This document shows, piece after piece, positions 49,138-62,752 of a DNA stretch of 64,000 nt (the stretch's first letter is position 1; each line of letters starts with the position of its first letter). The stretch is from an uncultured Sunxiuqinia sp. (GTDB lineage Bacteria > Bacteroidota > Bacteroidia > Bacteroidales > Prolixibacteraceae): contig OZ223309.1 in NCBI GenBank assembly GCA_965140765.1, positions 1,003,470 through 1,067,469 on the forward strand, read 5' to 3'. Under the pieces are notes generated by a model that was not told the DNA's origin, made no database searches, and was given only the letters and a program-made list of their open reading frames with translations. A program made the translations under genes and the position numbers.

Positions 49138-49167
49138 CTCTTCCATGAACCAAAAATCCCAAAGACA

Positions 49168-50082
49168 ATGGTTATTAAGATCCACCAGGCTTGCAGTACG
49201 AAAAACGCATTGTTTTACAATGAGCGGAAGGTTGACCGTCATTGGGCTTCGTTTTATCACAGCAGGAATATGCCTGTCTTAAACCCATTCCTGGGAGATA
49301 AAAATGATCGGTACAGGATATTTCAGGAGATTGAAGACCGAAATACCCGTGTTAAAAAGCCTGGATTGCATATATCCGTCAATCCAACTGTTAGTGATAT
49401 GGTCCGATTGGGTGATGTCGGTATCAGAACTGAGATTGGTAACCTGATGGAACACCTTGGCTACGGGAATCAGCCATACCTGGTTTATAAACACGCTGAT
49501 CTGGAACGGGTGCATTTTCATATTGTTTCTACACGTATCGATTGTGAGACTGGAAAGAGGATCAAAGACAGTTACGAGAAGGAAAAGACCCAGCGGTTCA
49601 TCAAAGGGCTTGAAGAAAAACATCAACTGATCAAAGATGAGCCAAGCCAGAAAATGAACTTTCGGTTTTCCGGTTCGAGTAAAAACCTGAAACAAAATCT
49701 GGAAAGCCTGTTTGCCCAGCTCAACCGAATGGAGTTTATTTCTTCCAGGGAAATGTATGACCAGGCGTTGGGACTATTTCAGGTGGAAATAAGACGGGTT
49801 GGCGGAGGGCATCTGGTTTTTGTAACGGATGAAAATGGCATACCTATCCGGCATCCAATAAGAACGAGTGATTTTGAAGAGAAACCGAAATTTTATTTGA
49901 AGGAAGATGTAAATCATATCGAAAAAGTGAGAATGAACCGCAAAGGAGGATTCCCTGAAAATTTAAAAATAGAATTATTGAAGGCGTTGCTCTATCAGTA
50001 CAATGCAAATTCAAAAGATTTCAATAGACGAGTTCGTAAAAGGACATCTGCCACTCGTCAGAAGAGAGGACGAAAATATTGA
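49168..50082 (+). CDS. Relaxase (MOBP-type HUH)
   Basis: N-terminal FYNE (catalytic Tyr), GLHISVNP, YKH.D.ER.HFHIVSTRID. Confidence 0.9.
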   Translation: MVIKIHQACSTKNALFYNERKVDRHWASFYHSRNMPVLNPFLGDKNDRYRIFQEIEDRNTRVKKPGLHISVNPTVSDMVRLGDVGIRTEIGNLMEHLGYGNQPYLVYKHADLERVHFHIVSTRIDCETGKRIKDSYEKEKTQRFIKGLEEKHQLIKDEPSQKMNFRFSGSSKNLKQNLESLFAQLNRMEFISSREMYDQALGLFQVEIRRVGGGHLVFVTDENGIPIRHPIRTSDFEEKPKFYLKEDVNHIEKVRMNRKGGFPENLKIELLKALLYQYNANSKDFNRRVRKRTSATRQKRGRKY

Positions 50083-50191
50083 TGTAACCCCATCGTTTTA
50101 TTAATCTGGATTCAGTCTCGGTACATGTTAAATTTATGGCTTATATTTACAGATTGTATGTTAAACTATATATAATCCAAACGAACTAATA

Positions 50192-52654
50192 ATGAGACCT
50201 CATTTGTATTTTAAAAATCCAGTAGAAGGAGCAAGAACACTAAAAGGGAGACCAGGTGGAGGTGGCAACGATGATGAAAATCAAAATAAGGGCGAAAAGG
50301 ATTACCGAAATTTGGCATCAACCTTTTCTGATTGCCTAGCAAAATATGAACTGGATTATGAAGAAAGAGTCGAGGGTAGAACAATTGAGATCGAAAATCA
50401 TTTTGATTCCATCGAGTTAAATTTTTTTGCAGGATTCGATGAAGTGAAGTTTAAGGCTTATTATATTGATAATTTTGGACTTGAATTGCTACGATTATCT
50501 CATTTTAACCGTAAGGGATTATTTGCTATTGAAGATGAAAAGAAATTTAACTCTTTCTTTAAACAGCTAAAAATTTTTATTAGTAATCAGGAGAATGATG
50601 AAGAAAAATTGTTTGATGCGAAGATTAAGTTCATTAAAACATTTAAGCTCTATTCAACTGCTGATCGAATAGGAAATATCAATGATTACGCTGTAATTCA
50701 TTTGTCATTTATGGGGATTGGATCTTTCATTGAAGATGATGTTGTCGCACCTCAGAAAAATGGATTGTCGTTGTTTCTTGAAGAAAATGGGATAGAATTT
50801 GTCTTTGAGGAAGAATATGGAGAGATATTTAATATCGACGACGATATACTTAAGTTTATTCTGGATAATTTTGACTTCATTTATGCCACATGTTCAGGAT
50901 CCGGAGCTATTGTAACGCCTAGTAAGTTCAATCTGCCTAAGAGGGAATTTGGTTTTGAAATTACTAACCCATACGAGGAACTACCTATTATTGGGGTGAT
51001 TGACTCAGGAGTTTCAGCTCAAACTCCTTTATCTACTATTTTAATAGGAACAGATGGTGAATATGATACAACAGGAACAGGCTCTTTTAATGATAATGCC
51101 AACCATGGAACAGGAGTAGCAGCATTCGCAGCATTTGGAAATAAATTAATCCCGGGATATAATGGAGCTGTGGAGGCTGATGCTAAAATATTGCCTATAA
51201 AAATTATTGATGGTAGCAGAGGGGCTATCTCCCAGAAACAAATAGTTGATCTCATTTGGAAAGCAAATTTTGTATATGGCGTAAGGATTTTTACGCTGAC
51301 AATAGGCTATACGGATTTTCCATTAAAAGACAATCAGGAATTTTCATCATATGCTGCAATGCTGGACAAAGTGGCCTCTGATCTAGATGTATTAATTTTT
51401 ATTTCTACAACCAATCACGTTATAAATAATTTAGCGGTTAAAGATTATCCTGAGAAATTTCAAATTAGCAACGCTAATATAGCACCACCTGCAGAAAGTA
51501 TGAACAATATGACAGTAGGTGCTACGGCAAATAATTTCGAAGACAATGGTGTTTTTGGCCTTGCGGGAAATCAAACATTCCCGGCATTATATTCGCGTAA
51601 ATTTCATTATAATTTTGCGGATGGCGATGTCTTTAATCGTGCCACAATTAACAAGTATTTACGTAAGCCTGACATTTTAATAGGTGGTGGGGATTATTAT
51701 GAAACTTCTTTGTTTGGAATGGAAGTATTGGATGAACAAGGAAAAACATGTTTGGAAGTATTGTCTTCTGATTTAAGGGAGAGGACATTTAAAGCTTTAG
51801 GAACCAGTTATTCAACTCCTCTTGTGGCTAATCTTGCAGCAAGGCTTCTTAAAATATATCCGGATTTAAATATGCAAAGTGTAAAAGCGCTTCTAATCAA
51901 TGCTTCTAGTGAGATTAAGTTGGGAGATATTTTTGATGGTTTCTCAAATAGTATGAAGGATCGTATTATCGGGTATGGAGAGTTGAATGATCAATTTTTA
52001 TTTTCAGATGATGAAAAGGTAACATTGGTTATTGAAGATGTAATACAGATAGATGAAATTAAGTTGTTTCCCCTTAATCTACCTGAGTATTTAAATGAAG
52101 CGCAAAAGAAAAATGGATTATTAAAATTCTCGACAACCTTGTGTTTCAAATTTCAACCCAAAACGAATAATCAATTAACTTATTGTCCTATCCATTTGAC
52201 ATATGTAATTGGTAAAAATGTAGAGATAGAAAATACAGAATGGGAAGAACGAGTAAATGAAGATGGAGAAGTAAATTTAGTTGAAGTGCCTTCAGGATAT
52301 AATGGGAGTAAGTCTGAAAAATATAGGATGGGCAATAAAGGATGGGTTCAGGACTTTTACTATAGAGAAAAGATCGTAAGTAATGTACAGAAAAATGCTT
52401 TCAATGTTAAACGGCAAGATATTATTGATGAAGACAATACTTTCAAACTAGCTATTAATGCTGCATTTCATAAAACCATGACTGATGCAGATAAAGAGTC
52501 ATTCGAAAAGAAAATTCCATTTAGCCTTGTAGTAACTATAGAACAAAAACCGTTAAAGGATGAAAGGTTGGATTCTTTATATGAAGGACTGATGGCCGTT
52601 AATGAGCTAGAAGCTATATCAAAACTGGATCTTGAAGCTGAGGCTGGTTATTGA
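50192..52654 (+). CDS. S8 subtilisin-like serine protease, IetS-like defence/toxin type
   Basis: Catalytic triad GVIDSG, NHGTGVA and GTSYSTP; no signal peptide; adjacent AAA ATPase. Confidence 0.88.
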   Translation: MRPHLYFKNPVEGARTLKGRPGGGGNDDENQNKGEKDYRNLASTFSDCLAKYELDYEERVEGRTIEIENHFDSIELNFFAGFDEVKFKAYYIDNFGLELLRLSHFNRKGLFAIEDEKKFNSFFKQLKIFISNQENDEEKLFDAKIKFIKTFKLYSTADRIGNINDYAVIHLSFMGIGSFIEDDVVAPQKNGLSLFLEENGIEFVFEEEYGEIFNIDDDILKFILDNFDFIYATCSGSGAIVTPSKFNLPKREFGFEITNPYEELPIIGVIDSGVSAQTPLSTILIGTDGEYDTTGTGSFNDNANHGTGVAAFAAFGNKLIPGYNGAVEADAKILPIKIIDGSRGAISQKQIVDLIWKANFVYGVRIFTLTIGYTDFPLKDNQEFSSYAAMLDKVASDLDVLIFISTTNHVINNLAVKDYPEKFQISNANIAPPAESMNNMTVGATANNFEDNGVFGLAGNQTFPALYSRKFHYNFADGDVFNRATINKYLRKPDILIGGGDYYETSLFGMEVLDEQGKTCLEVLSSDLRERTFKALGTSYSTPLVANLAARLLKIYPDLNMQSVKALLINASSEIKLGDIFDGFSNSMKDRIIGYGELNDQFLFSDDEKVTLVIEDVIQIDEIKLFPLNLPEYLNEAQKKNGLLKFSTTLCFKFQPKTNNQLTYCPIHLTYVIGKNVEIENTEWEERVNEDGEVNLVEVPSGYNGSKSEKYRMGNKGWVQDFYYREKIVSNVQKNAFNVKRQDIIDEDNTFKLAINAAFHKTMTDADKESFEKKIPFSLVVTIEQKPLKDERLDSLYEGLMAVNELEAISKLDLEAEAGY

Positions 52655-52663
52655 TCAAGTTCG

Positions 52664-53674
52664 TTAGCTGTTTTTATGGTGAGATAAAAGCTTCTTCCAA
52701 ACTGCTGTATCAACAGAAAAATCTGGATTGATAGAATCTGATGAAAATAAAGTTCTTTTAATTGCGGTTATTAATGTCCTTTGAATAATAAAATATGATA
52801 AGCCAACCGAATAATTTACAATCTCGGTAAGAGCTTTCTTCTCCTTCATTTTAAATGGGGTATTGTCCAGCGTTTTTGAAATAAGTTGGCGGATCTGTGT
52901 TTTATTTGGAATATCTAATTTCATTTTCACATCAAATCGTCGCAATAATGCTTCATCGATCATTTGCAATTGGTTCGTCGCTGCAATAACAATACTCTTT
53001 TGTGGCAAATAGTCAAATAGTTGTAAAATCGTATTTACAACTCTTTTCATTTCTCCATGATCCTGGCTATAATCACGAATCTTCCCAAGCGAGTCGAATT
53101 CATCCAGAAAAATAATGCAGTCTTCGCTTGTTGCTCTTCTGAATATCTTTGCCAGGTTCTTACTCGTCTCACCTAACTTTGAGGAAACAATTGCTCCTAA
53201 ATTAATGACATACATCATCTTTTCAAGTTCCCCGGCCAATACATATGATGCAAGGGTTTTCCCACAGCCTGAGGGACCGTAAAAAAGAATCTTATTTGAT
53301 ACGGGCAATTCGAATTTATTGAGGACTTCGATACCATGATGTTCTTTGACAAAAAATTCCAGTTCTTCCCTTACATCACTGGAACAAACGAGATTATCAA
53401 AAGAGTAATCAGAAGTAAGTTTTTCAATTATTAATTCATTGATCTCTCTTTCGTCCTCTCTTAAATAATATTTTTGCGAACCAACTTTTGCCAATCCTTT
53501 TGTTTGTTGTGCACGTAATCCTTCTTTTAAAATGGATTGCATTTGCAGCGCGAAATTGACTTTTTTGGTTTTTTTCGAATGCTCTATAAACCGATTTAAC
53601 ACATCAAGAAGCTGTTCCTGATCATTTTCGAGGCCATACCTTGCAATATCTTTTATGAAATCAAACTGACTCAT
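52664..53674 (-). CDS. AAA+ ATPase, IetA-like
   Basis: GPSGCGKT, IIFLDEFD, DHGEMKRVVN, AATN, ALLRRFD. Confidence 0.9.
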   Translation of the reverse strand: MSQFDFIKDIARYGLENDQEQLLDVLNRFIEHSKKTKKVNFALQMQSILKEGLRAQQTKGLAKVGSQKYYLREDEREINELIIEKLTSDYSFDNLVCSSDVREELEFFVKEHHGIEVLNKFELPVSNKILFYGPSGCGKTLASYVLAGELEKMMYVINLGAIVSSKLGETSKNLAKIFRRATSEDCIIFLDEFDSLGKIRDYSQDHGEMKRVVNTILQLFDYLPQKSIVIAATNQLQMIDEALLRRFDVKMKLDIPNKTQIRQLISKTLDNTPFKMKEKKALTEIVNYSVGLSYFIIQRTLITAIKRTLFSSDSINPDFSVDTAVWKKLLSHHKNS

Positions 53675-53679
53675 GCTTA

Positions 53680-53687
53680 CAAAAGTA
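53680..53687 (-). promoter_or_regulatory. Bacteroidetes -7 promoter element for the AAA ATPase
   Basis: TACTTTTG on the minus strand matches TAnnTTTG, 5 nt before the ATG. Confidence 0.5.
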
Positions 53688-53833
53688 ATATATTGAACTT
53701 TGCCTTTACAGAGTTAATGACTTTTTTTTCAACAAACAGATGTTTGTATTTGTTTATCAATCACTTTCGTATGTGAACGATGCCTATCCACTCTCATAAT
53801 AAATAAAGGCAAAAAAGTTAAAAGAAACTTTTA

Positions 53834-56578
53834 TCAATTTCGAAAGAAGAATTTTAAGTAAATATCACCTAACTCCGAATTATATTCCATAGATAGATAT
53901 TTCTCCAATTTTACTTTAATCCTTGATTCTTTACTAAATTGTTTAAAAAAAGTTTCTGACTTTTTATTAAAAAGAAGCCAATCTAACTGGAATTTGTCAT
54001 AATCATATTCGTAGAAATCAAATTTTAGTAACCATTCGCAATATGGAGAAATTTTCACATCCTTGGGAATCAATGTGAGTATGTACCTTCTATCAATACC
54101 AAGACGGTAAACTGCAGATATAAAATTTAAGTAAGTGTAGTTTTTATGTTCTTGTTCAATTGGACTGCTAAGCATTTCCTTGACCTCTCTTGAAATACTT
54201 TGATTAACAAACTTCTTGAATATTTCTTCATTTTCAAGTGAAACCAATTCCTGAAGATATAAATCAAGAAAGATCAATGAGCTAATACTATTTTTTTTTA
54301 GATAATCATTAAAAAAATCTGATATCAATTTTTGTTTCTCATTAGTTACAACCTTACTAAGATAAATCAAATGGTGAAAATCCGAACAAGATTTTTTGTT
54401 GGCAATTTTTAAGATTATCATGTCTGCCAAGCTATCGCTAATTCTAAATTGAGCTCTTTCAATTAATATCTTGCTTATGGTCTTGGGTAAATTGGTGTTT
54501 CTTAAATATGCCTTATTTAGCCATAACTCAATCAGTTCTTCCAATTGTTCCGAAGTGAATAATTCCTTTTTTGCATTGATAAAAAACTTAAGTTCATTAT
54601 TTGAGTTAAAAAATAAATTTGACGAGTTAAATCTCAGAAAATTTATTAAGTTAGACACTAAAGTATCTGTTTGGTTATTTTTTTGCAATGCAGTCTTAGA
54701 CAAAAGAAACAAGCAATTACTGAAGATTTCTGCTACTTTTTGTTTGGCGTCAAAACTCTTTGTATACTGAAAAAATTCTTCTTTAGCTGTGAAACCACCA
54801 AAAATGGACTTTTCATGATTGTTTTGTAAAAAATTATTGAAAATTTCGAGAAGTTCATTCAAACAATCCTGTGTTGTAACTATCTGATTAATATTGTTTA
54901 TGGAGAATATTTTCTGTAGCTTCTTTGGTGAAATAAATAAAATCGCATTTAGTATGTGAAACCCGTTAAACTCTTTTAGATGTCCTCTATATTTTTCAAT
55001 TTTGTGACTAATCAATAAAGCCTCAAATATTTTAGATAATATTCCTGTAATATTTCCATACTTATTGCCGATTAGATAGTTCCATTCATAATATCCAAAT
55101 AGTGAGGCCATTTGAGAAAGTAGTTGTCTCACATAGTTTGGCCCTGAAAAACTCCCTTCATTTTCATAGACATCCCTAATTTCGATTATTTGGGCGAATA
55201 AATCATCAACTCTATAACGAGTCTTTGAAATCAATTTTTCTTCTTTGATTTCAATAATAATCCGATGAACATCTGCATCAACATTTTCTTTTATTTCACA
55301 AATTATCTGGTCTAAATCTATTTCCCTAATATAATCCAGAATGGATTCTTTATCTTTTAATGAGTAATTACCTTTTATATCATAATAGAGGTACTTCAAA
55401 TTATAACTAGCTACAAAATATTTCAGAGAATTTTGTTGCCTATATTTTTCCCTCAAATACCTATAAATGAGGTACGCATCTTTATAATTATTAGATGCCA
55501 AATTATATGCGACGTAGCCCGTTTTAAGGTCATAGTCTTCTTCATTTCCCATTGTAGCATCAATATACTCATAGGCTTGAAGAAATTTCAGATCATGATA
55601 TAGACATTGAATACATTGGCAACTCTTTGCGTGATAATCTTTTTGTATTTGAAAAGTTACACTATTATTATCTAAATAAGGGAAAGGGTAGTTCAAATCG
55701 TAACCAAAGATTCCACCCGCTAACTTCAAACGTGCTTTATTCGGATCCCTATAAGATTCTATGTAAAAAACCAAATTTTGATTTAATCTGTTAATGACAT
55801 ACTCGACTTTATCTTCATAATCTTCAACTGATGCTCTCTCTAAAGACACAACTAGTTCCTTAGAAATCTCAATCCTGTCTTTATCTATTTTTACATTTTC
55901 GAAAAACCAATATAACTCCGGATTTAAAGTATATAAAGTAAAGGTCTCATAATGAAAAGCAACCTCCTTTTCGTCATGGAAAGGATAGAGATTAGAGAGA
56001 GTGTTAGGAGGAATAAAATTAAAACCTTCAAATTTTTGAAAAAAATCAAATAGTTGCTGAACGATATGTTTAGATTCCACAATTACACTTTCCAAACTAC
56101 TTTTTGTTTCAATATCGTAAGTTGAACTATTATCACTCGTTACAACTTCGTTTACTTCTTTAGCAAAATCAGCAAGAATTTTCTCTTTATTATCCCCTTT
56201 GTATGAATTTAACGGCTTTGCATCCTTTGGCCTTATTAGATGTGCAGAAATCTGCGGGACTACTTGCCAATTACATGATTTTACAATCAATGGAAAGACT
56301 GAAATACCTTCTTTTGCCCTTCTCTCAAAAAGTCGGGGAACCTCTTCTTCTCTGATAAAGTCAGAATTTAAAAAATTTGTCGATACAATAAGTACTGCTG
56401 CATCTGCTCTTTCTATGGCTTTTATAATCTCAGGATTAATCTCATCCCCACATTTCAAATCTGAATCAGACCAACCTTTTATCTCATTGGAGTACTTTTC
56501 GAAAATTCGTAGATGTTCTTCAACCTTCTTTTTTTCCTCTTCGTCTTTATGACTATAACTAATAAATATACTTTTCAT
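53834..56578 (-). CDS. TIR-domain protein with long helical C-terminal body (DSR2-like)
   Basis: IFISYSHKD...WSD..L..G.....I..AI..A...VLIVS.NFLNSDFI.EEEV TIR with catalytic-position E79, followed by about 750 aa of helical repeats. Confidence 0.85.
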   Translation of the reverse strand: MKSIFISYSHKDEEEKKKVEEHLRIFEKYSNEIKGWSDSDLKCGDEINPEIIKAIERADAAVLIVSTNFLNSDFIREEEVPRLFERRAKEGISVFPLIVKSCNWQVVPQISAHLIRPKDAKPLNSYKGDNKEKILADFAKEVNEVVTSDNSSTYDIETKSSLESVIVESKHIVQQLFDFFQKFEGFNFIPPNTLSNLYPFHDEKEVAFHYETFTLYTLNPELYWFFENVKIDKDRIEISKELVVSLERASVEDYEDKVEYVINRLNQNLVFYIESYRDPNKARLKLAGGIFGYDLNYPFPYLDNNSVTFQIQKDYHAKSCQCIQCLYHDLKFLQAYEYIDATMGNEEDYDLKTGYVAYNLASNNYKDAYLIYRYLREKYRQQNSLKYFVASYNLKYLYYDIKGNYSLKDKESILDYIREIDLDQIICEIKENVDADVHRIIIEIKEEKLISKTRYRVDDLFAQIIEIRDVYENEGSFSGPNYVRQLLSQMASLFGYYEWNYLIGNKYGNITGILSKIFEALLISHKIEKYRGHLKEFNGFHILNAILFISPKKLQKIFSINNINQIVTTQDCLNELLEIFNNFLQNNHEKSIFGGFTAKEEFFQYTKSFDAKQKVAEIFSNCLFLLSKTALQKNNQTDTLVSNLINFLRFNSSNLFFNSNNELKFFINAKKELFTSEQLEELIELWLNKAYLRNTNLPKTISKILIERAQFRISDSLADMIILKIANKKSCSDFHHLIYLSKVVTNEKQKLISDFFNDYLKKNSISSLIFLDLYLQELVSLENEEIFKKFVNQSISREVKEMLSSPIEQEHKNYTYLNFISAVYRLGIDRRYILTLIPKDVKISPYCEWLLKFDFYEYDYDKFQLDWLLFNKKSETFFKQFSKESRIKVKLEKYLSMEYNSELGDIYLKFFFRN

Positions 56579-56619
56579 TCAATTTGTATATTAATGTTTA
56601 CAAGCTAAAATACCGAGTG

Positions 56620-59600
56620 TTACATAATATTATAACGGCTATTTCGACCCTGTTCTATCCAAAAGTCTACCACTTTGTTTTTTATGCCCCAATAACTTAG
56701 CACAAACGCGATTGTTGATAAATGGAGAAAATACGCTGGTTTATAACTATTGTTGAAGTCGTGCAATTTATACCTTTCAAGGATTAGCAATAATTTTTCA
56801 CTGTATTGTTTCAAACAATCTTCATCCTTTAATTCCCTAACCCATATAGCTACCTTTTTTAAGGTAAATAAGAGGTTAGGATCACTTATGGAAAGTATTT
56901 TTGATAAAACAAGCTCAATACAATTCTCAAATGGGGACACTTTTGAATTTTCAAAAAGATACCGAGTTAATTCTTCCAACGCATGAAAGTAATATTCTTC
57001 GGTATCATCCATGAGTCTTTGAAGCAAACTACCTTCACCTTTCTCAATTGACAATAGACGATCTATTTTTTCTGTAATTTTCTCATAATCAGTTAGTCTC
57101 TTTAAGGCATGTTCTTCTTTAAGAAGGAAGATTCTCATTTCATCCAGCAGGTCTTTAAAATTTAATAATATTTTATTCCGATTTCCCCATTTTTCTATTT
57201 TAGAAAGTTCTCTTCTTAAAGTATTATATAGCGATAGCGTTTCTTCTCTTGACCATTTTATTCCATCGGAAAGAGATTTATTTTTTGTGAAATTGCGTAA
57301 TTGGATGAAATGTTCATTTGTTGCAGACATGCGGCCGTCTTTATCAAATCTTACCCCTGAAGCAAATAGATATTTGCTTTTTAATATTGCTGTTTTTAAA
57401 TTATTGATAATCCTTACATTGTTTTGTGCAAAAATTAAAACAACATACCAAATATTATAACTATCAAATTTGCCAAGATCAGTATTTTCAAGGTATTCTT
57501 TTATTTTTGTTTTTTGTTTAAAATTGATTATCGGCTCCAAATTTCCCAGTAGATACATCGACCGTATGAAATGAGTAGGAATTTCTTCTATCATTTCCTC
57601 TATTTGCAGTTTTATAGATGTTCTTATCAAATATTTTTCGGAATGCTTAATTATTTTTCTGCTCGAAAGAATATATAAATAATTAATAGCTAATTCACTT
57701 TTATGTCTGTTATTCAAAATTGATTTAATTATATGTGCTATGGTTTTATTGGTTGCCAAATAACTTAAACTCTTTTTCACAAATGAATGTATGGGGAAAG
57801 CTATTTCGGAGAACTGCTTACCTTCTCTTAGTTGTAAATCCCAAATTTTTAAAAAAGTGTTTTCCCATTCATTTGCCGGAATAGCTGCAACTATTTCTGA
57901 TAAAAAGTACAGTATGCTATCTTTAATTTTTTCAAGGGTTGCTTCGGATATATATGCTCTATAAAGCGATTGATAAATTTCTGATAATTTCTCGTTTAGT
58001 TTTTCTGAATTGACAAAGTCTTGTCCTATCCTTTTTGTAAAATTACCATCTTGATATTGAAGACTGTAATAAAGGGCAGGAAAAGGAAATTCTTCAAATA
58101 CTAGCTTGAAGGATGGATACCAATCTTTATGGTCTATAAATCTGGCATTTTGAACCTCAAGAAATAACCCCGATTGAATTAAATATTGCACATATTGAAC
58201 CCCCAACAAGAACCTATCATTTCCTGACATGTCATGGTAGAAATCAAAATCTCCTCTCGGATAAGGTCTTATGCTATTATCTATATTCTTGTTGATTTTA
58301 TCAGATAGAATCTCAATATTATTTCGAATGTCTTTAGCTCCAAGCGCTTTAAGCTTATTGATCTCATCAAGAATTTTATCATCTCTTTCCCATCTCACTG
58401 AGCTTCTTGTGAGTAGAAGAAGATAATAGGTATTGATTTTTTCCTGATTTGATAAACTAGAAAAAGATGCCAAATCTTTTACAAAATCTTCTAATAGATT
58501 ATATGCATCTTTTGGGTTGATTTGTGCTAATAAAGAAGCTTTAAGAGCAACATAATGGGCATTAGGTGTCCAATTATTCAGATGGAATAATAAGTCGGGA
58601 AAACTGAAATTGAATGCATGATAAAGAGCTTTTTCATACATTAGTTCGTCATCATTATCCTTCGATAGCTTCTTTTCAAAAATTTTATCAAAAGCCAAAT
58701 TTGGGTTACTTAGAATAGTCCCTCTTATATGCAATAAGTTCAATGGTCTTGCAAAAGGAACCGGGACATTATCTTTAATTTTTTCAAATGTTTGGTCAGG
58801 TATTACGTGCATAGAAAAGATTAAATAGGAGTCGTTTAATGACAATAGTAGTAACTTGAAAAAGAAAGGTAAAATTTCGTGTGAACTAAAATATTTATAG
58901 TTTCTATCGATATATCTCAAAAAATCTGTTGATGTATTTTGCTCATAAACATCAAAATTTTTCACTTTGGAATACGCTTTTAGCTCCCAGAGCTTGTCAA
59001 TATTTTCGATCAGTTTCTCTTCATCCATAGCATGCCCAAACACGCTTTTACTAAGCTCCTCCCATATACTTTTATAAGATTTAATTCTTTCTTCTTCAGT
59101 AACGTTGTTTTTATTGTCTGACAGATAAGTTAGAAATTTTTTAAGTACTACTTTCCCTTCACGGTTTGTTGTTCCTAAAAACTCTCTAATTTCATTAGAA
59201 GCTAGTGAAATTTTGACTATTCGATGATTTTTAAAAAATAGTTCTTTATCAATTGTCAGTTCATCATTTCCAATATCAACTAAATAAATCTTAAAACTAT
59301 TGTTTAAAGATTCTTCCTTGTTATTGGCCGTTTGGTAGGATTTTTTTTCGATAATATCCCTAACCCAATTTATCCATGCAATAAAATTAGGATCTATTCC
59401 GGAAAAACCGATGAGACAAAAGGAATCTTGTAAGAGTGTAATTCTCATTAATTGAGTAAAAGCTTCATGCTTTTGGGGATAGTCTTGATAATCATCTTTA
59501 CAAATTACATATCGTTTATGGACATCTCCGTCAAATCCAAAAAAATTCTCTTCTCTATCCAGGGGGATCGACCCATGAAGTTTAATGATATTCCTGTTTT

Positions 59601-60465
59601 TCTGTAACTCCAATTCCGAAGAATCTTTCACAACATTTATGCGTTCATTGTCTATCTTCGTGGTTAAGGAATTTATTTCTATAGTGATATTCTCATTTGC
59701 TTTTCTCAGTTCATCTATTTTTTCATCTATATTCCCCAGATGATCATTAAAAGCGGGCACAGATGAAGTATCCGAAGAATTTGATTCATGCATTTCCAAA
59801 TCAGGTCGACTTTCTGTCGACTTTTTTGTCATGTATGAGGAAATTTGTTCCTCATTTTTTTTAATTTGGCTATTTAACTTTACTATCTTTTCAGAAATAC
59901 TGTCAAAAATAATCTTTTGGTCTTCATAGGCGCACTCAATCGCATTATCATAATTCGTAGTAAAAATGTTGTTCCACTTCAAAGAGATTAATCTTTTATG
60001 CAGATCTAGGCTATTCAAAGGCACTCTTTTACTTGCTCTTTTTGAATGTAAAAATTTCAAGCTATATTCATCAGTATCTAATGACTTTTCGATGATAGGG
60101 ATATGTTCTTCGATGTAGGCATCTATTGATTCTCGGAAACCTTTTCTCTTGATATATTGGGAGACAAGATCCAAATATCCTTCTCTGCATATTATATCCG
60201 CAATAATAAATTGTTGATTAAATATTTTTGAAGCTTTAGGAATCCCCAACCTATCAATTCCCTTCATTTTTAATTTGTGCTCTATTTCGGGCTTGTACAT
60301 CTCAATTACCATGTCGCAAAGTAGCTCTGACCAGTTTGGGAAGATATTGCTGATGTTTTTGCTAAAGCCAGAGCCAACCAGCAGTGATACTTTTTCTCTA
60401 TCAAGTAAATTTTTTAACGATTTTAGAGCAGAAACCGGGTTGTCAGATAATATTTTATCGTCCAT
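56620..60465 (-). CDS. Large SIR2-like domain protein (sirtuin NADase plus helical C-terminal region)
   Basis: LLVGSGFS, NWSELL, FTTNYD, IKLHGS and LIGFSGIDPNF sirtuin motifs; 1281 aa. Confidence 0.88.
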   Translation of the reverse strand: MDDKILSDNPVSALKSLKNLLDREKVSLLVGSGFSKNISNIFPNWSELLCDMVIEMYKPEIEHKLKMKGIDRLGIPKASKIFNQQFIIADIICREGYLDLVSQYIKRKGFRESIDAYIEEHIPIIEKSLDTDEYSLKFLHSKRASKRVPLNSLDLHKRLISLKWNNIFTTNYDNAIECAYEDQKIIFDSISEKIVKLNSQIKKNEEQISSYMTKKSTESRPDLEMHESNSSDTSSVPAFNDHLGNIDEKIDELRKANENITIEINSLTTKIDNERINVVKDSSELELQKNRNIIKLHGSIPLDREENFFGFDGDVHKRYVICKDDYQDYPQKHEAFTQLMRITLLQDSFCLIGFSGIDPNFIAWINWVRDIIEKKSYQTANNKEESLNNSFKIYLVDIGNDELTIDKELFFKNHRIVKISLASNEIREFLGTTNREGKVVLKKFLTYLSDNKNNVTEEERIKSYKSIWEELSKSVFGHAMDEEKLIENIDKLWELKAYSKVKNFDVYEQNTSTDFLRYIDRNYKYFSSHEILPFFFKLLLLSLNDSYLIFSMHVIPDQTFEKIKDNVPVPFARPLNLLHIRGTILSNPNLAFDKIFEKKLSKDNDDELMYEKALYHAFNFSFPDLLFHLNNWTPNAHYVALKASLLAQINPKDAYNLLEDFVKDLASFSSLSNQEKINTYYLLLLTRSSVRWERDDKILDEINKLKALGAKDIRNNIEILSDKINKNIDNSIRPYPRGDFDFYHDMSGNDRFLLGVQYVQYLIQSGLFLEVQNARFIDHKDWYPSFKLVFEEFPFPALYYSLQYQDGNFTKRIGQDFVNSEKLNEKLSEIYQSLYRAYISEATLEKIKDSILYFLSEIVAAIPANEWENTFLKIWDLQLREGKQFSEIAFPIHSFVKKSLSYLATNKTIAHIIKSILNNRHKSELAINYLYILSSRKIIKHSEKYLIRTSIKLQIEEMIEEIPTHFIRSMYLLGNLEPIINFKQKTKIKEYLENTDLGKFDSYNIWYVVLIFAQNNVRIINNLKTAILKSKYLFASGVRFDKDGRMSATNEHFIQLRNFTKNKSLSDGIKWSREETLSLYNTLRRELSKIEKWGNRNKILLNFKDLLDEMRIFLLKEEHALKRLTDYEKITEKIDRLLSIEKGEGSLLQRLMDDTEEYYFHALEELTRYLFENSKVSPFENCIELVLSKILSISDPNLLFTLKKVAIWVRELKDEDCLKQYSEKLLLILERYKLHDFNNSYKPAYFLHLSTIAFVLSYWGIKNKVVDFWIEQGRNSRYNIM

Positions 60466-60566
60466 TTTGTAAATATATGATTTAGCAGAATAAAGATATT
60501 GAAATAAAAAAAGAGGATTAAGTTTTTCTGGTTATTTTCTCTTTAACTCAAATTCCTGTCAAATTT

Positions 60567-60727
60567 ATTGATCGCTTCCCGGAACGGTAAAGGGGAACTC
60601 GCTTTTCGTGGCTCGTTTCCTTCGGATGCGTTCATTCCGGTTACATCGGAATGACATGCACCCCGTTGACCTGATCCGGGACAGCTCAATGGTGGTATGC
60701 CAAAAATTTAAGTTTAATGGCGTGCCA
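60567..60727 (+). promoter_or_regulatory. Structured upstream element, copy 1 (before ardC)
   Basis: Long imperfect stem 60567-60595 with 60661-60690, plus second stem 60693-60702 with 60718-60727; homologous to 62541-62714. Confidence 0.7.
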
Positions 60728-60788
60728 GAGATCCCCTTGGTTTCTTCAAGGGTGCCAAAGCAAGTCCGAAAGGCATCGGCAGTTTCCC

Positions 60789-61703
60789 ATGAATACTTCA
60801 TTTGACATTTACGAAATGGTTACCAATCTGATTATCGAACGCCTTGAAAAAGGTGTCATTCCTTGGCAGATGCCGTGGAAAGCCGAAACAGGCTTGCCCC
60901 AGAACATGGTTTATAAAAAGGTTTACCGTGGTTTTAACTTCTGGTTGTTGCTGACCGTGGTCGATCAGTTCGGTTCCCCATTTTTCCTGACCTTCAAACA
61001 GGTCAAGGAGCTTGGCGGGCATGTCCTGAAAGGCGAAAAAGGTTTCCCAGTTGTATTCTGGAAAATCCTTGAAAAGGAAGAGAAAGACGGCGGTATCGAC
61101 CAAATCCCGTTCCTCCGGTACTATACCGTTTTCAACCTGAAACAGACCGAAGGGATCGATGAAAGCAAAATCCCGTCCACGGAAGCCTACGATCACAATT
61201 TTGACCCGATCGGGCAAGCCGAGCAGTTGATCGAATACTGGTCTGATTGTCCCGAGATCAAACTAGACCAGTCCCATGCTTTCTATTCACCTACAGGTGA
61301 CTATATCGGGATGCCAAACCCTCGGACTTTCTTTCAGGACGAGCAATTTTACAGCGTTTTGTACCATGAAAGTGTCCACGCTACCGGCCACATTAACCGA
61401 ACAGGCAGGCATGAAAAACTCCCAGACCACAAGTTTGGTTCACAAGACTACAGCCAAGAGGAACTGGTAGCTGAACTGGGTGCTGCCTACCTATGCCATA
61501 TCACCGGTATCCAAAATGCCACGATTGACAACAGTGCCGCATATATCAAAAGCTGGATCGGTAAATTCAAGGAAGATAAAAAGATGTTGCTGACAGCTTC
61601 GTCCCAGGCACAAAAGGCAGTGGACTATATCCTGGAGCACCAATCCAATCCCAACCGGCCAGCAAGCGCAAACCGGGCAGGGCAATTGGCGGAGGCGGTT
61701 TAG
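60789..61703 (+). CDS. ardC: ArdC-family anti-restriction ssDNA-binding protein with zincin-like domain
   Basis: LEKGVIPW..PW, YRGFN, FLTFKQ...GG.V.KGEKG, LRYYTVFN, HESVH (HExxH), EELVAE; ATG at 60789. Confidence 0.92.
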   Translation: MNTSFDIYEMVTNLIIERLEKGVIPWQMPWKAETGLPQNMVYKKVYRGFNFWLLLTVVDQFGSPFFLTFKQVKELGGHVLKGEKGFPVVFWKILEKEEKDGGIDQIPFLRYYTVFNLKQTEGIDESKIPSTEAYDHNFDPIGQAEQLIEYWSDCPEIKLDQSHAFYSPTGDYIGMPNPRTFFQDEQFYSVLYHESVHATGHINRTGRHEKLPDHKFGSQDYSQEELVAELGAAYLCHITGIQNATIDNSAAYIKSWIGKFKEDKKMLLTASSQAQKAVDYILEHQSNPNRPASANRAGQLAEAV

Positions 61704-62484: not shown

Positions 62485-62540
62485 GTTCGTATGACTTTTG
62501 ATCAGGTAAAACCACTCCATTTAAAATTGCAGGCAAAGTT

Positions 62541-62714
62541 ATTGATCGCTTCACGGAAAAGTCAAGGGCGGCCTCCCTTGGCCAATAGATCCAACGCTTT
62601 GCCGCACTCCGTGCTCGGTCAGCTTTTTGCCCCAGCAAAAACCAGACTTTCACCCTTGACAAGAATCCGTGATAGCTCAATGACCGGTTACGCCGAAATT
62701 TTAACCGGCGTGCC
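62541..62714 (+). promoter_or_regulatory. Structured upstream element, copy 2 (before 62753)
   Basis: Stem 62541-62568 with 62653-62681, second stem 62686-62695 with 62706-62714; covaries with copy 1. Confidence 0.7.
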
Positions 62715-62752
62715 AGATGCCAAAATAAACCTCCAGGGCAGGAGTAAAATCT

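Follow-up and report, generated by a model that had tools for sequence, protein, structure and literature searches.

A TIR-headed relative of DSR2 beside a giant DSR2-like SIR2 protein: two probably separate defence genes in a cargo slot of a Bacteroidota mobile element

DSR2 (defence-associated sirtuin 2) of Bacillus subtilis is an NADase made of one protein, which senses the tail tube protein of phages. In this system, binding of a phage structural protein de-represses the head of DSR2, depletes nicotinamide adenine dinucleotide (NAD+) and aborts the infection (PMC10981675, PMC11263360, PMC11850899). The SIR2 heads of DSR2 form a pre-formed inactive tetramer; TIR NADases usually need induced head-to-tail assembly (PMC10981675). 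The Thoeris system consists of a SIR2 protein (ThsA) whose killing domain is fused to a sensor for the signal (SLOG for type I, Macro or another domain for the later types) and a small TIR protein (ThsB), both acting on NAD+; ThsB makes a cyclic or histidine-linked ADP-ribose signal by which ThsA is activated. A 64,000-nucleotide stretch of an uncultured Sunxiuqinia sp. (contig OZ223309.1, positions 1,003,470 to 1,067,469), hereafter the window, contains two adjoining genes encoding a SIR2 protein of 1281 amino acids (aa), P0001, and a TIR protein of 914 aa, P0002:

56620-60465, minus strand, 1281-aa SIR2 protein P0001 (open reading frame (ORF) list; Pfam SIR2_2)
56579-56619, minus strand, intergenic spacer of 41 bp (sequence and terminator scan)
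53834-56578, minus strand, 914-aa TIR-headed DSR2 homologue P0002 (ORF list; AF2 model and Foldseek)

These are quite probably two separate, self-sufficient anti-phage proteins of DSR2 architecture, stacked in a cargo slot between a relaxase and an ArdC gene beside the IetAS system, and not a signalling pair. Both genes appear to be stand-alone single-gene systems, as judged from the sequences of relatives, in which the neighbours vary.

The layout described earlier in a sequence-only reading of the window is borne out. According to the ORF list, the genes are co-oriented and 41 bp apart, and a consensus scan of the minus strand of the spacer found no terminator-like site or hairpin. That reading was also correct in considering the proteins too large for Thoeris and devoid of SLOG. 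Apart from SIR2_2 in P0001 (E 2.9e-14) and TIR_2 in P0002 (residues 4-104, E 6.2e-12), no further Pfam domain was found in either protein, and neither Pfam nor PADLOC gave a match to SLOG, Macro, SAVED or CARF. The finding it did not state is that both large C-terminal regions are, as far as the structural models allow, DSR2-type sensor bodies. The GC content of both giant genes is 30-31%, in an island of 30% GC, and is below that of the flanking relaxase (41%) and ArdC (49%) genes; therefore the two genes are considered imported cargo.

P0001 has 306 homologues of 1250-1315 aa in Bacteroidota (profile search), nearly always annotated just as 'SIR2 family protein'. The following parts are predicted:

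59266-60465, minus strand, SIR2 NADase head, approximately residues 1-400 (conserved motifs; SIR2-only chains of DSR2 at template-modelling score (TM) 0.70-0.75)
59644-59943, minus strand, helical-hairpin insertion of about 100 residues (175-274) in the SIR2 domain (AF2 secondary structure)
56623-59265, minus strand, all-helical body, residues 401-1281, the presumed sensor (AF2; alignment with full-length DSR2; no Pfam domain)

The head motifs read from the DNA are the GSG loop (residues 31-33), N171/D173 and H297. N171, D173 and H297 are invariant in 77 homologues, which include the two that the earlier reading proposed to mutate (N171 and H297), and the GSG loop is invariant or nearly so. 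The insertion consists of two helices in the AF2 model, H175-218 and H237-274, and the Pfam SIR2_2 match is split in two stretches. The PADLOC Dsr2 model matches P0001 over four stretches (E 5e-34); the match to the ThsA models is confined to residues 304-375.

For residues 1-1200 of P0001, AF2 gave a model with a predicted local distance difference test value (pLDDT) of 83.5, with most of the body at 80-96. In the Foldseek comparison with the PDB, the top 42 matches are full-length DSR2 chains (E 5e-12 to 2.5e-7), and E is about 1e-6 for ThsA and for the SIR2-only DSR2 chains. Full-length chains thus score about 1e6-fold better than SIR2-only chains, at a global TM of 0.25-0.33, and therefore the body contributes to the match. 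Compared to B. subtilis DSR2, P0001 is about 275 residues longer, its SIR2 domain extends over residues 1 to about 400 instead of 1-298, and the helical hairpin of about 100 residues is added within this domain. Judging by the model, P0001 is DSR2-like in overall architecture, with a SIR2 head retaining the catalytic Asn and His and a body that may or may not be homologous to that of DSR2.

The features of P0002 are as follows:

56129-56578, minus strand, TIR head, residues 1-150, with conserved E78/E79 (Pfam TIR_2; PADLOC; alignment of homologues)
53837-56128, minus strand, DSR2-type helical body, residues 151-914 (phmmer family; variable heads)
55604-55621, minus strand, CxCxxC motif C320/C322/C325, read CQCIQC (family conservation)
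53972-54007, minus strand, C-terminal motif YDYDKFQLDWLL, with the FDYxxFxxxWL signature common to B. subtilis DSR2 (read from the DNA)

Both E78 and E79 are conserved in the alignment of TIR-headed homologues. If the usual W-C-x-x-E register applies, the catalytic residue could equally well be E78 or E79. Thus E79, singled out in the earlier reading, is indeed a conserved glutamate, but one of two, and its neighbour is an equally plausible catalytic residue. Across the body family the CxCxxC motif, a possible metal site, hardly varies (conservation of 90% or more in 111 sequences, and also in 52 sequences). In the C-terminal motif (DYDKFQLDWL at 859-868) the family shows almost no variation at Y860, F863 and W867.

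The AF2 model of P0002, based on eight homologues, has a mean pLDDT of 61.5. The values are 70-90 over residues 510-914 and fall below 50 in the TIR head, a result of the mixture of heads in the alignment. The top 17 Foldseek matches in the PDB are all B. subtilis DSR2 (E 4e-7 to 9e-4), with TM 0.33-0.43 for full-length chains and 0.52 for chains of the C-terminal domain (CTD) only, and the next ones are generic solenoids with E >3e-3. The MID and CTD domains of DSR2 have no close structural homologues (PMC11850899), and therefore these fold matches are specific. Direct sequence searches of the PDB with P0001, P0002 and small alignments yielded only ThsA or plant TIR domains, and DSR2 was not among the matches of P0001 either with the single sequence or with a small alignment. 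Hence the link to DSR2 needed both the fold comparison and a sequence bridge.

The bridge is provided by relatives of the P0002 body. A phmmer search with residues 151-914 against 1.84 billion representatives produced a family of 267 clusters, 201 of them at E<=1e-10 and 72 at E<=1e-30. The PDB was searched with just two SIR2-headed members, P0057 (1023 aa) and P0112 (1008 aa), and for both of them DSR2 (1005 aa) is the best match (E 3e-32 and 5e-38, respectively). Residues 892-1022 of P0057 align to DSR2 875-1003 (conditional E 2.3e-8), and this region includes the FDYxxFxxxWL motif. The P0002 body thus belongs to one sequence family with SIR2-headed proteins of about 1010 aa, the motif being common to both. 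Model and family membership together place P0002, with its TIR head, in a broadly defined DSR2 family, its body being homologous to the MID and CTD of DSR2. Since its head is TIR_2 and not SIR2, it is a head-swapped relative rather than a strict DSR2.

The heads of the family vary. Among the 52 members scanned there are MmeI_N (10), PIN_12 (8), SMEK_N (6), DUF4365 (6), SIR2_2 (4), TIR_2 (3) and EAD11 (1) heads; SIR2_2 was found in all nine long members that were tested separately, and an Mrr-like head occurs on close relatives of P0002. The presence of variable heads on one body marks the head as the effector. As plainly destructive domains are among them, the TIR head of P0002 is more likely an NADase effector than a signal generator. 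On the evidence of these sequences the DSR2 body, spread over at least 267 clusters, is not tied to SIR2 but is a modular chassis for eight or more kinds of head. In the literature searched, no description was found of a DSR2-body family with TIR, SMEK or swapped heads.

DSR2 (PDB 8WY8, 8K98, 8Z18) is the only strong structural match for both P0001 and P0002, each of which combines a head of an NAD+-consuming type with a large helical body, of the MID/CTD type in P0002 and putatively so in P0001; P0002 differs in having TIR in place of SIR2. The two proteins were also considered as recent paralogues in their bodies, and this was ruled out: BLASTP of P0001 against P0002 gave no match, and the profile-profile comparison of the two families gave a single one, in the SIR2-head stretch, with 8.6% probability. 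The P0001 body had no profile match to the body family of P0002 and DSR2. With the bodies unrelated at the profile level, the triggers are probably different. The P0002 body family also resembles Avs, bacterial NLR-like and other single-chain sensors, where a variable N-terminal effector (SIR2, TIR, nuclease or PIN) is attached to a conserved sensor. However, P0001 and P0002 lack a STAND/NACHT NTPase module that would connect the head to the sensor.

If the analogy with B. subtilis DSR2 holds, each body would bind its own phage protein during infection, and this binding would free the SIR2 head of P0001 or the TIR head of P0002. The freed head would then destroy the cellular NAD+, and the infection would abort. 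NADase activity, the phage-protein trigger, the oligomeric state and abortive infection are all transferred here from DSR2. Co-transcription of the genes, if any, would reflect packing of the island and not a signalling circuit.

If the two proteins formed a circuit, their genes would be expected to travel together. Neighbourhoods were examined at about 25 places in all. The relatives of the TIR-protein body occupy about 19 of them, in about 16 distinct lineages, and a P0001-type SIR2 gene adjoins none. Seven relatives came from a word-based search in which residues 150-914 of P0002 were the query. P0005 (L001) and P0007 (L002, L003) lie 6-7 bp behind a gene of a 1261-1267-aa type IIG restriction-modification enzyme; P0006 is behind a TraG coupling-protein gene (L011); P0010 is upstream of a RES-domain gene; the neighbour of P0009 is an unknown gene; and P0011 from Elizabethkingia adjoins a Gabija-like pair. 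A scan of species-representative genomes yielded 13 body-family loci, with IetAS, STAND NTPases, RhuM and large proteins of unknown kind among their neighbours; no SIR2-family neighbour was found at these loci using BLAST against P0001 and the SIR2-family profile. Partial neighbours in the short contigs L009-L011 were checked as candidate SIR2 proteins or type IIG enzymes, and are neither.

Several details of these loci deserve mention. L001 (5630-12170) and L002 (6191-12829) are diverged, with type IIG genes 64% identical and a helix-turn-helix gene upstream in both; the body gene behind the type IIG gene has a TIR head in one of them and an Mrr-like head in the other. The type IIG gene and the DSR2-body gene may be a linked pair. 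In L010 (3508-4332) a RES-domain gene is located 42 bp after the TIR-headed DSR2 relative. RES toxins of the RES-Xre pairs also degrade NAD+. P0016, a protein of 1241 aa with no Pfam or PADLOC match, is encoded beside a body-family gene in two unrelated loci, L002 (12917-16642) and L017 (5666-9546), and is split into ORFs of 949 and 344 aa in L017. In Flavobacterium (L013, 6039-12448) an IetA-IetS pair, 34% and 23% identical to that of the window, directly precedes a body-family gene; this second instance of IetAS beside the family is probably due to island clustering.

On the SIR2 side, a TIR gene adjoins the relatives of P0001 in none of the six other lineages. The closest relatives, P0012 and P0013 (57-59% identical), are followed by a gene of a 563- or 566-aa protein with a weak NERD/PD-(D/E)xK signal. 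P0169 (48% identical) is followed by a gene of a CoiA-like nuclease of 569 aa, P0170 (43%) by DUF4238 and then AbiV, P0171 (41%) by an AbiV remnant only, and P0173 (36%) by two small genes of unknown kind. None of these downstream partner genes is covered by a PADLOC model. In the 563/566-aa protein (L004 6575-8266, L005 4098-5798) the signal covers approximately residues 346-434, and there is no other family assignment. The 563-aa gene stands in the place of the TIR gene, and was considered as a homologue of P0002 as well as of the 569-aa CoiA-like gene behind P0169; it is homologous to neither. Directly upstream of P0169 (L030 1712-5898) there are a Piwi-domain (prokaryotic Argonaute) gene and unknown genes of 581 and 107 aa.

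One sample of 400 genomes from the phylum was surveyed. The SIR2 family was found in G172 and G274, and the TIR-body family in G167, G215 and G239; in this survey the two coincide in no genome other than that of the window itself. A soil-metagenome run contains contigs with about 87-96% identity to the island, and the SIR2-TIR junction (56158-56845) is spanned by one of them. These represent the same island in a close relative, and thus are not independent support for the pairing.

The immediate surroundings of the two genes include:

49168-50082, plus strand, relaxase, one border of the slot (Pfam Relaxase; homologues border the slot in L025, L032 and L033)
50192-52654, plus strand, IetS subtilase (PADLOC IetS, E 5.7e-35; 82% identical in L025)
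52664-53674, minus strand, IetA AAA+ ATPase, a separate neighbouring system (PADLOC IetA, E 7.7e-70; 94% identical in L004/L025)
60717-61703, plus strand, ArdC-type anti-restriction gene, the other border of the slot (Pfam ArdcN and MPTase-PolyVal; homologues in L032 and L033)

L025 is a longer copy of L004 and contains the same island in a related element. Its relaxase, IetS and IetA genes match window positions 49166-53759 at 83% DNA identity, with homology to the island resuming about 85 bp upstream of the IetA start, and its SIR2 gene matches 56669-60729 (67% DNA and 59% protein identity). The region between, 53760-56668, which comprises the TIR gene and the spacer, has no counterpart in L025, and an unrelated 568-aa gene is found there instead. 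Thus IetAS, which lies immediately downstream in the same island and is a separate ATPase-protease system, is retained at 82-94% identity while the gene adjoining it is swapped.

L032 and L033 share the backbone (relaxase 61% and 53%, ArdC 58% and 49% identical, respectively). Between these genes L032 contains QatABCD-SIR2-DUF4238-AbiV and L033 contains Gabija-SIR2-AbiV remnant; the corresponding content is IetAS, the TIR-headed DSR2 relative and the SIR2 gene in the window, and IetAS, the 568-aa gene and the SIR2 gene in L025. As the cargo differs between a shared relaxase and a shared ArdC, the space between them (49168-61703 in the window) is a variable slot for defence cargo, and the gene behind the SIR2 gene is, on this comparison of sequences, an exchangeable cassette of the slot. 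The surroundings look like a Bacteroidota conjugative or mobilisable element: Pfam identifies a relaxase, a DUF3945/DUF4099 gene, ArdC and an N6-methylase-like gene, and long tra-like ORFs occur in the window.

The sequence-only reading had offered two alternatives, stacked stand-alone sensors and a Thoeris-like circuit. The former is retained. In the latter, the TIR protein would sense the phage via its body and make a signal derived from ADP-ribose (ADPR), to be read by the C-terminal region of the SIR2 protein with ensuing NAD+ depletion. This is very improbable. It would fit the co-orientation of the genes with a gap of 41 bp and no terminator, and the resemblance of the SIR2 head to the SIR2 domain of ThsA; like Thoeris, the locus combines TIR and SIR2 proteins that, as predicted from their domains, act on NAD+. 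However, unlike ThsA, P0001 is devoid of SLOG, Macro and any further ligand-binding domain that is known, and in the fold comparison its body is aligned to the sensor body of DSR2; unlike the small ThsB, the TIR domain here is fused to its own 760-aa DSR2-type body. The families do not co-occur in the relatives (none of about 19 TIR-family places, none of six other SIR2 lineages, no shared genome among 400), which is the independence of homologues that the earlier reading had itself named as refuting the circuit. Moreover, the same island in L025 has another gene in place of the TIR gene, and the exchange of TIR with nucleases, PIN and SIR2 on the same body fits a killing and not a signalling head. 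None of the three defining features of Thoeris (a ligand-binding domain, a small ThsB, co-occurrence) was found.

Some observations weigh against two independent proteins. The best model for the P0002 head is one of ThsB-type, that is signal-generating, TIR domains (PADLOC ThsB1, E 3.6e-25, residues 1-150 only), as a Thoeris-like circuit would have it. The SIR2-TIR junction, also in line with such a circuit, is kept in the relative that is about 90% identical, so that the pair is stable over that distance, probably due to shared descent. The P0002 model is of moderate quality, and its global TM values to DSR2 are low (0.25-0.43), which flexible solenoids of several domains would lead one to expect. 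Finally, a close co-oriented gene lies downstream of the SIR2 gene in six of seven lineages, which could mean a two-gene logic with interchangeable partners.

The last point leads to another alternative: the 1281-aa SIR2 protein might act as a hub with an interchangeable downstream partner, the TIR-headed DSR2 relative here and nuclease-like proteins or DUF4238 elsewhere, functionally connected in a way other than that of Thoeris (for instance a shared sensor and second effector, or a backup set off by inhibition of the first). The co-oriented gene lies at a distance of 7-41 bp in these lineages (41 in the window, 18 in L004, 17 in L005, 14 in L030, 7 in L032, 29 in L034), and the SIR2 gene and the gene of the 563/566-aa protein have co-diverged (55% identity for SIR2, 57% for the partners). 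On the other hand, the downstream genes are mutually unrelated, and each looks like a complete effector-plus-sensor protein; the SIR2 gene of L033 is trailed by the AbiV remnant only; and genes of the TIR family sit equally tightly behind different genes, the type IIG gene at 6-7 bp being an example. Tight tandem packing is usual in defence islands. We therefore regard the hub as unlikely. A particular coupling, with the TIR-headed DSR2 relative as a second arm of the SIR2 sensor that fires if the SIR2 arm is blocked or outrun, or exchanges an NAD-derived signal with it, seems a doubtful proposition; if true, it would be a new two-sensor NAD+ circuit made of two DSR2-type proteins.

One or both genes might also be decaying cargo without function, as the DNA is foreign, low in GC and carried by a mobile element, and members of either family are rare (2-3 genomes per 400). 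This is hard to reconcile with two full-length reading frames free of stops, intact catalytic and family-invariant residues, and homologues of the same length across Bacteroidota, and we give it little credence.

With two stand-alone proteins as the favoured reading, the tempting interpretation of the locus as a 'giant Thoeris' is removed, and the tandem becomes a case of defence genes stacked in the ordinary way. Of greater interest are the TIR-headed DSR2 relative itself and the evidence for a modular DSR2 body. This relative would allow one to compare how one sensor scaffold switches two unrelated NADase folds; in particular, the switching of a TIR head by a DSR2 body is an interesting question, given the choice between a tetramer and an induced assembly. 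The island is natural material for studying stacked NAD+-depleting sensors, which may provide a wider phage range or protection against phage inhibitors. New defence genes in mobile elements of Bacteroidota may usefully be sought in the relaxase-ArdC slot.

Some minor features of the island were observed as well. The genes of IetA and IetS do not form one operon but converge, with 9 bp between their ends; the arrangement is the same in L025, with an overlap of 7 bp. Short non-coding segments at 60543-60634, upstream of the SIR2 gene, and at 62524-62740 are 75-94% conserved in L004, L005 and L025, and occur twice in the window. Read joints in run X2 link position 60691 to position 62689.

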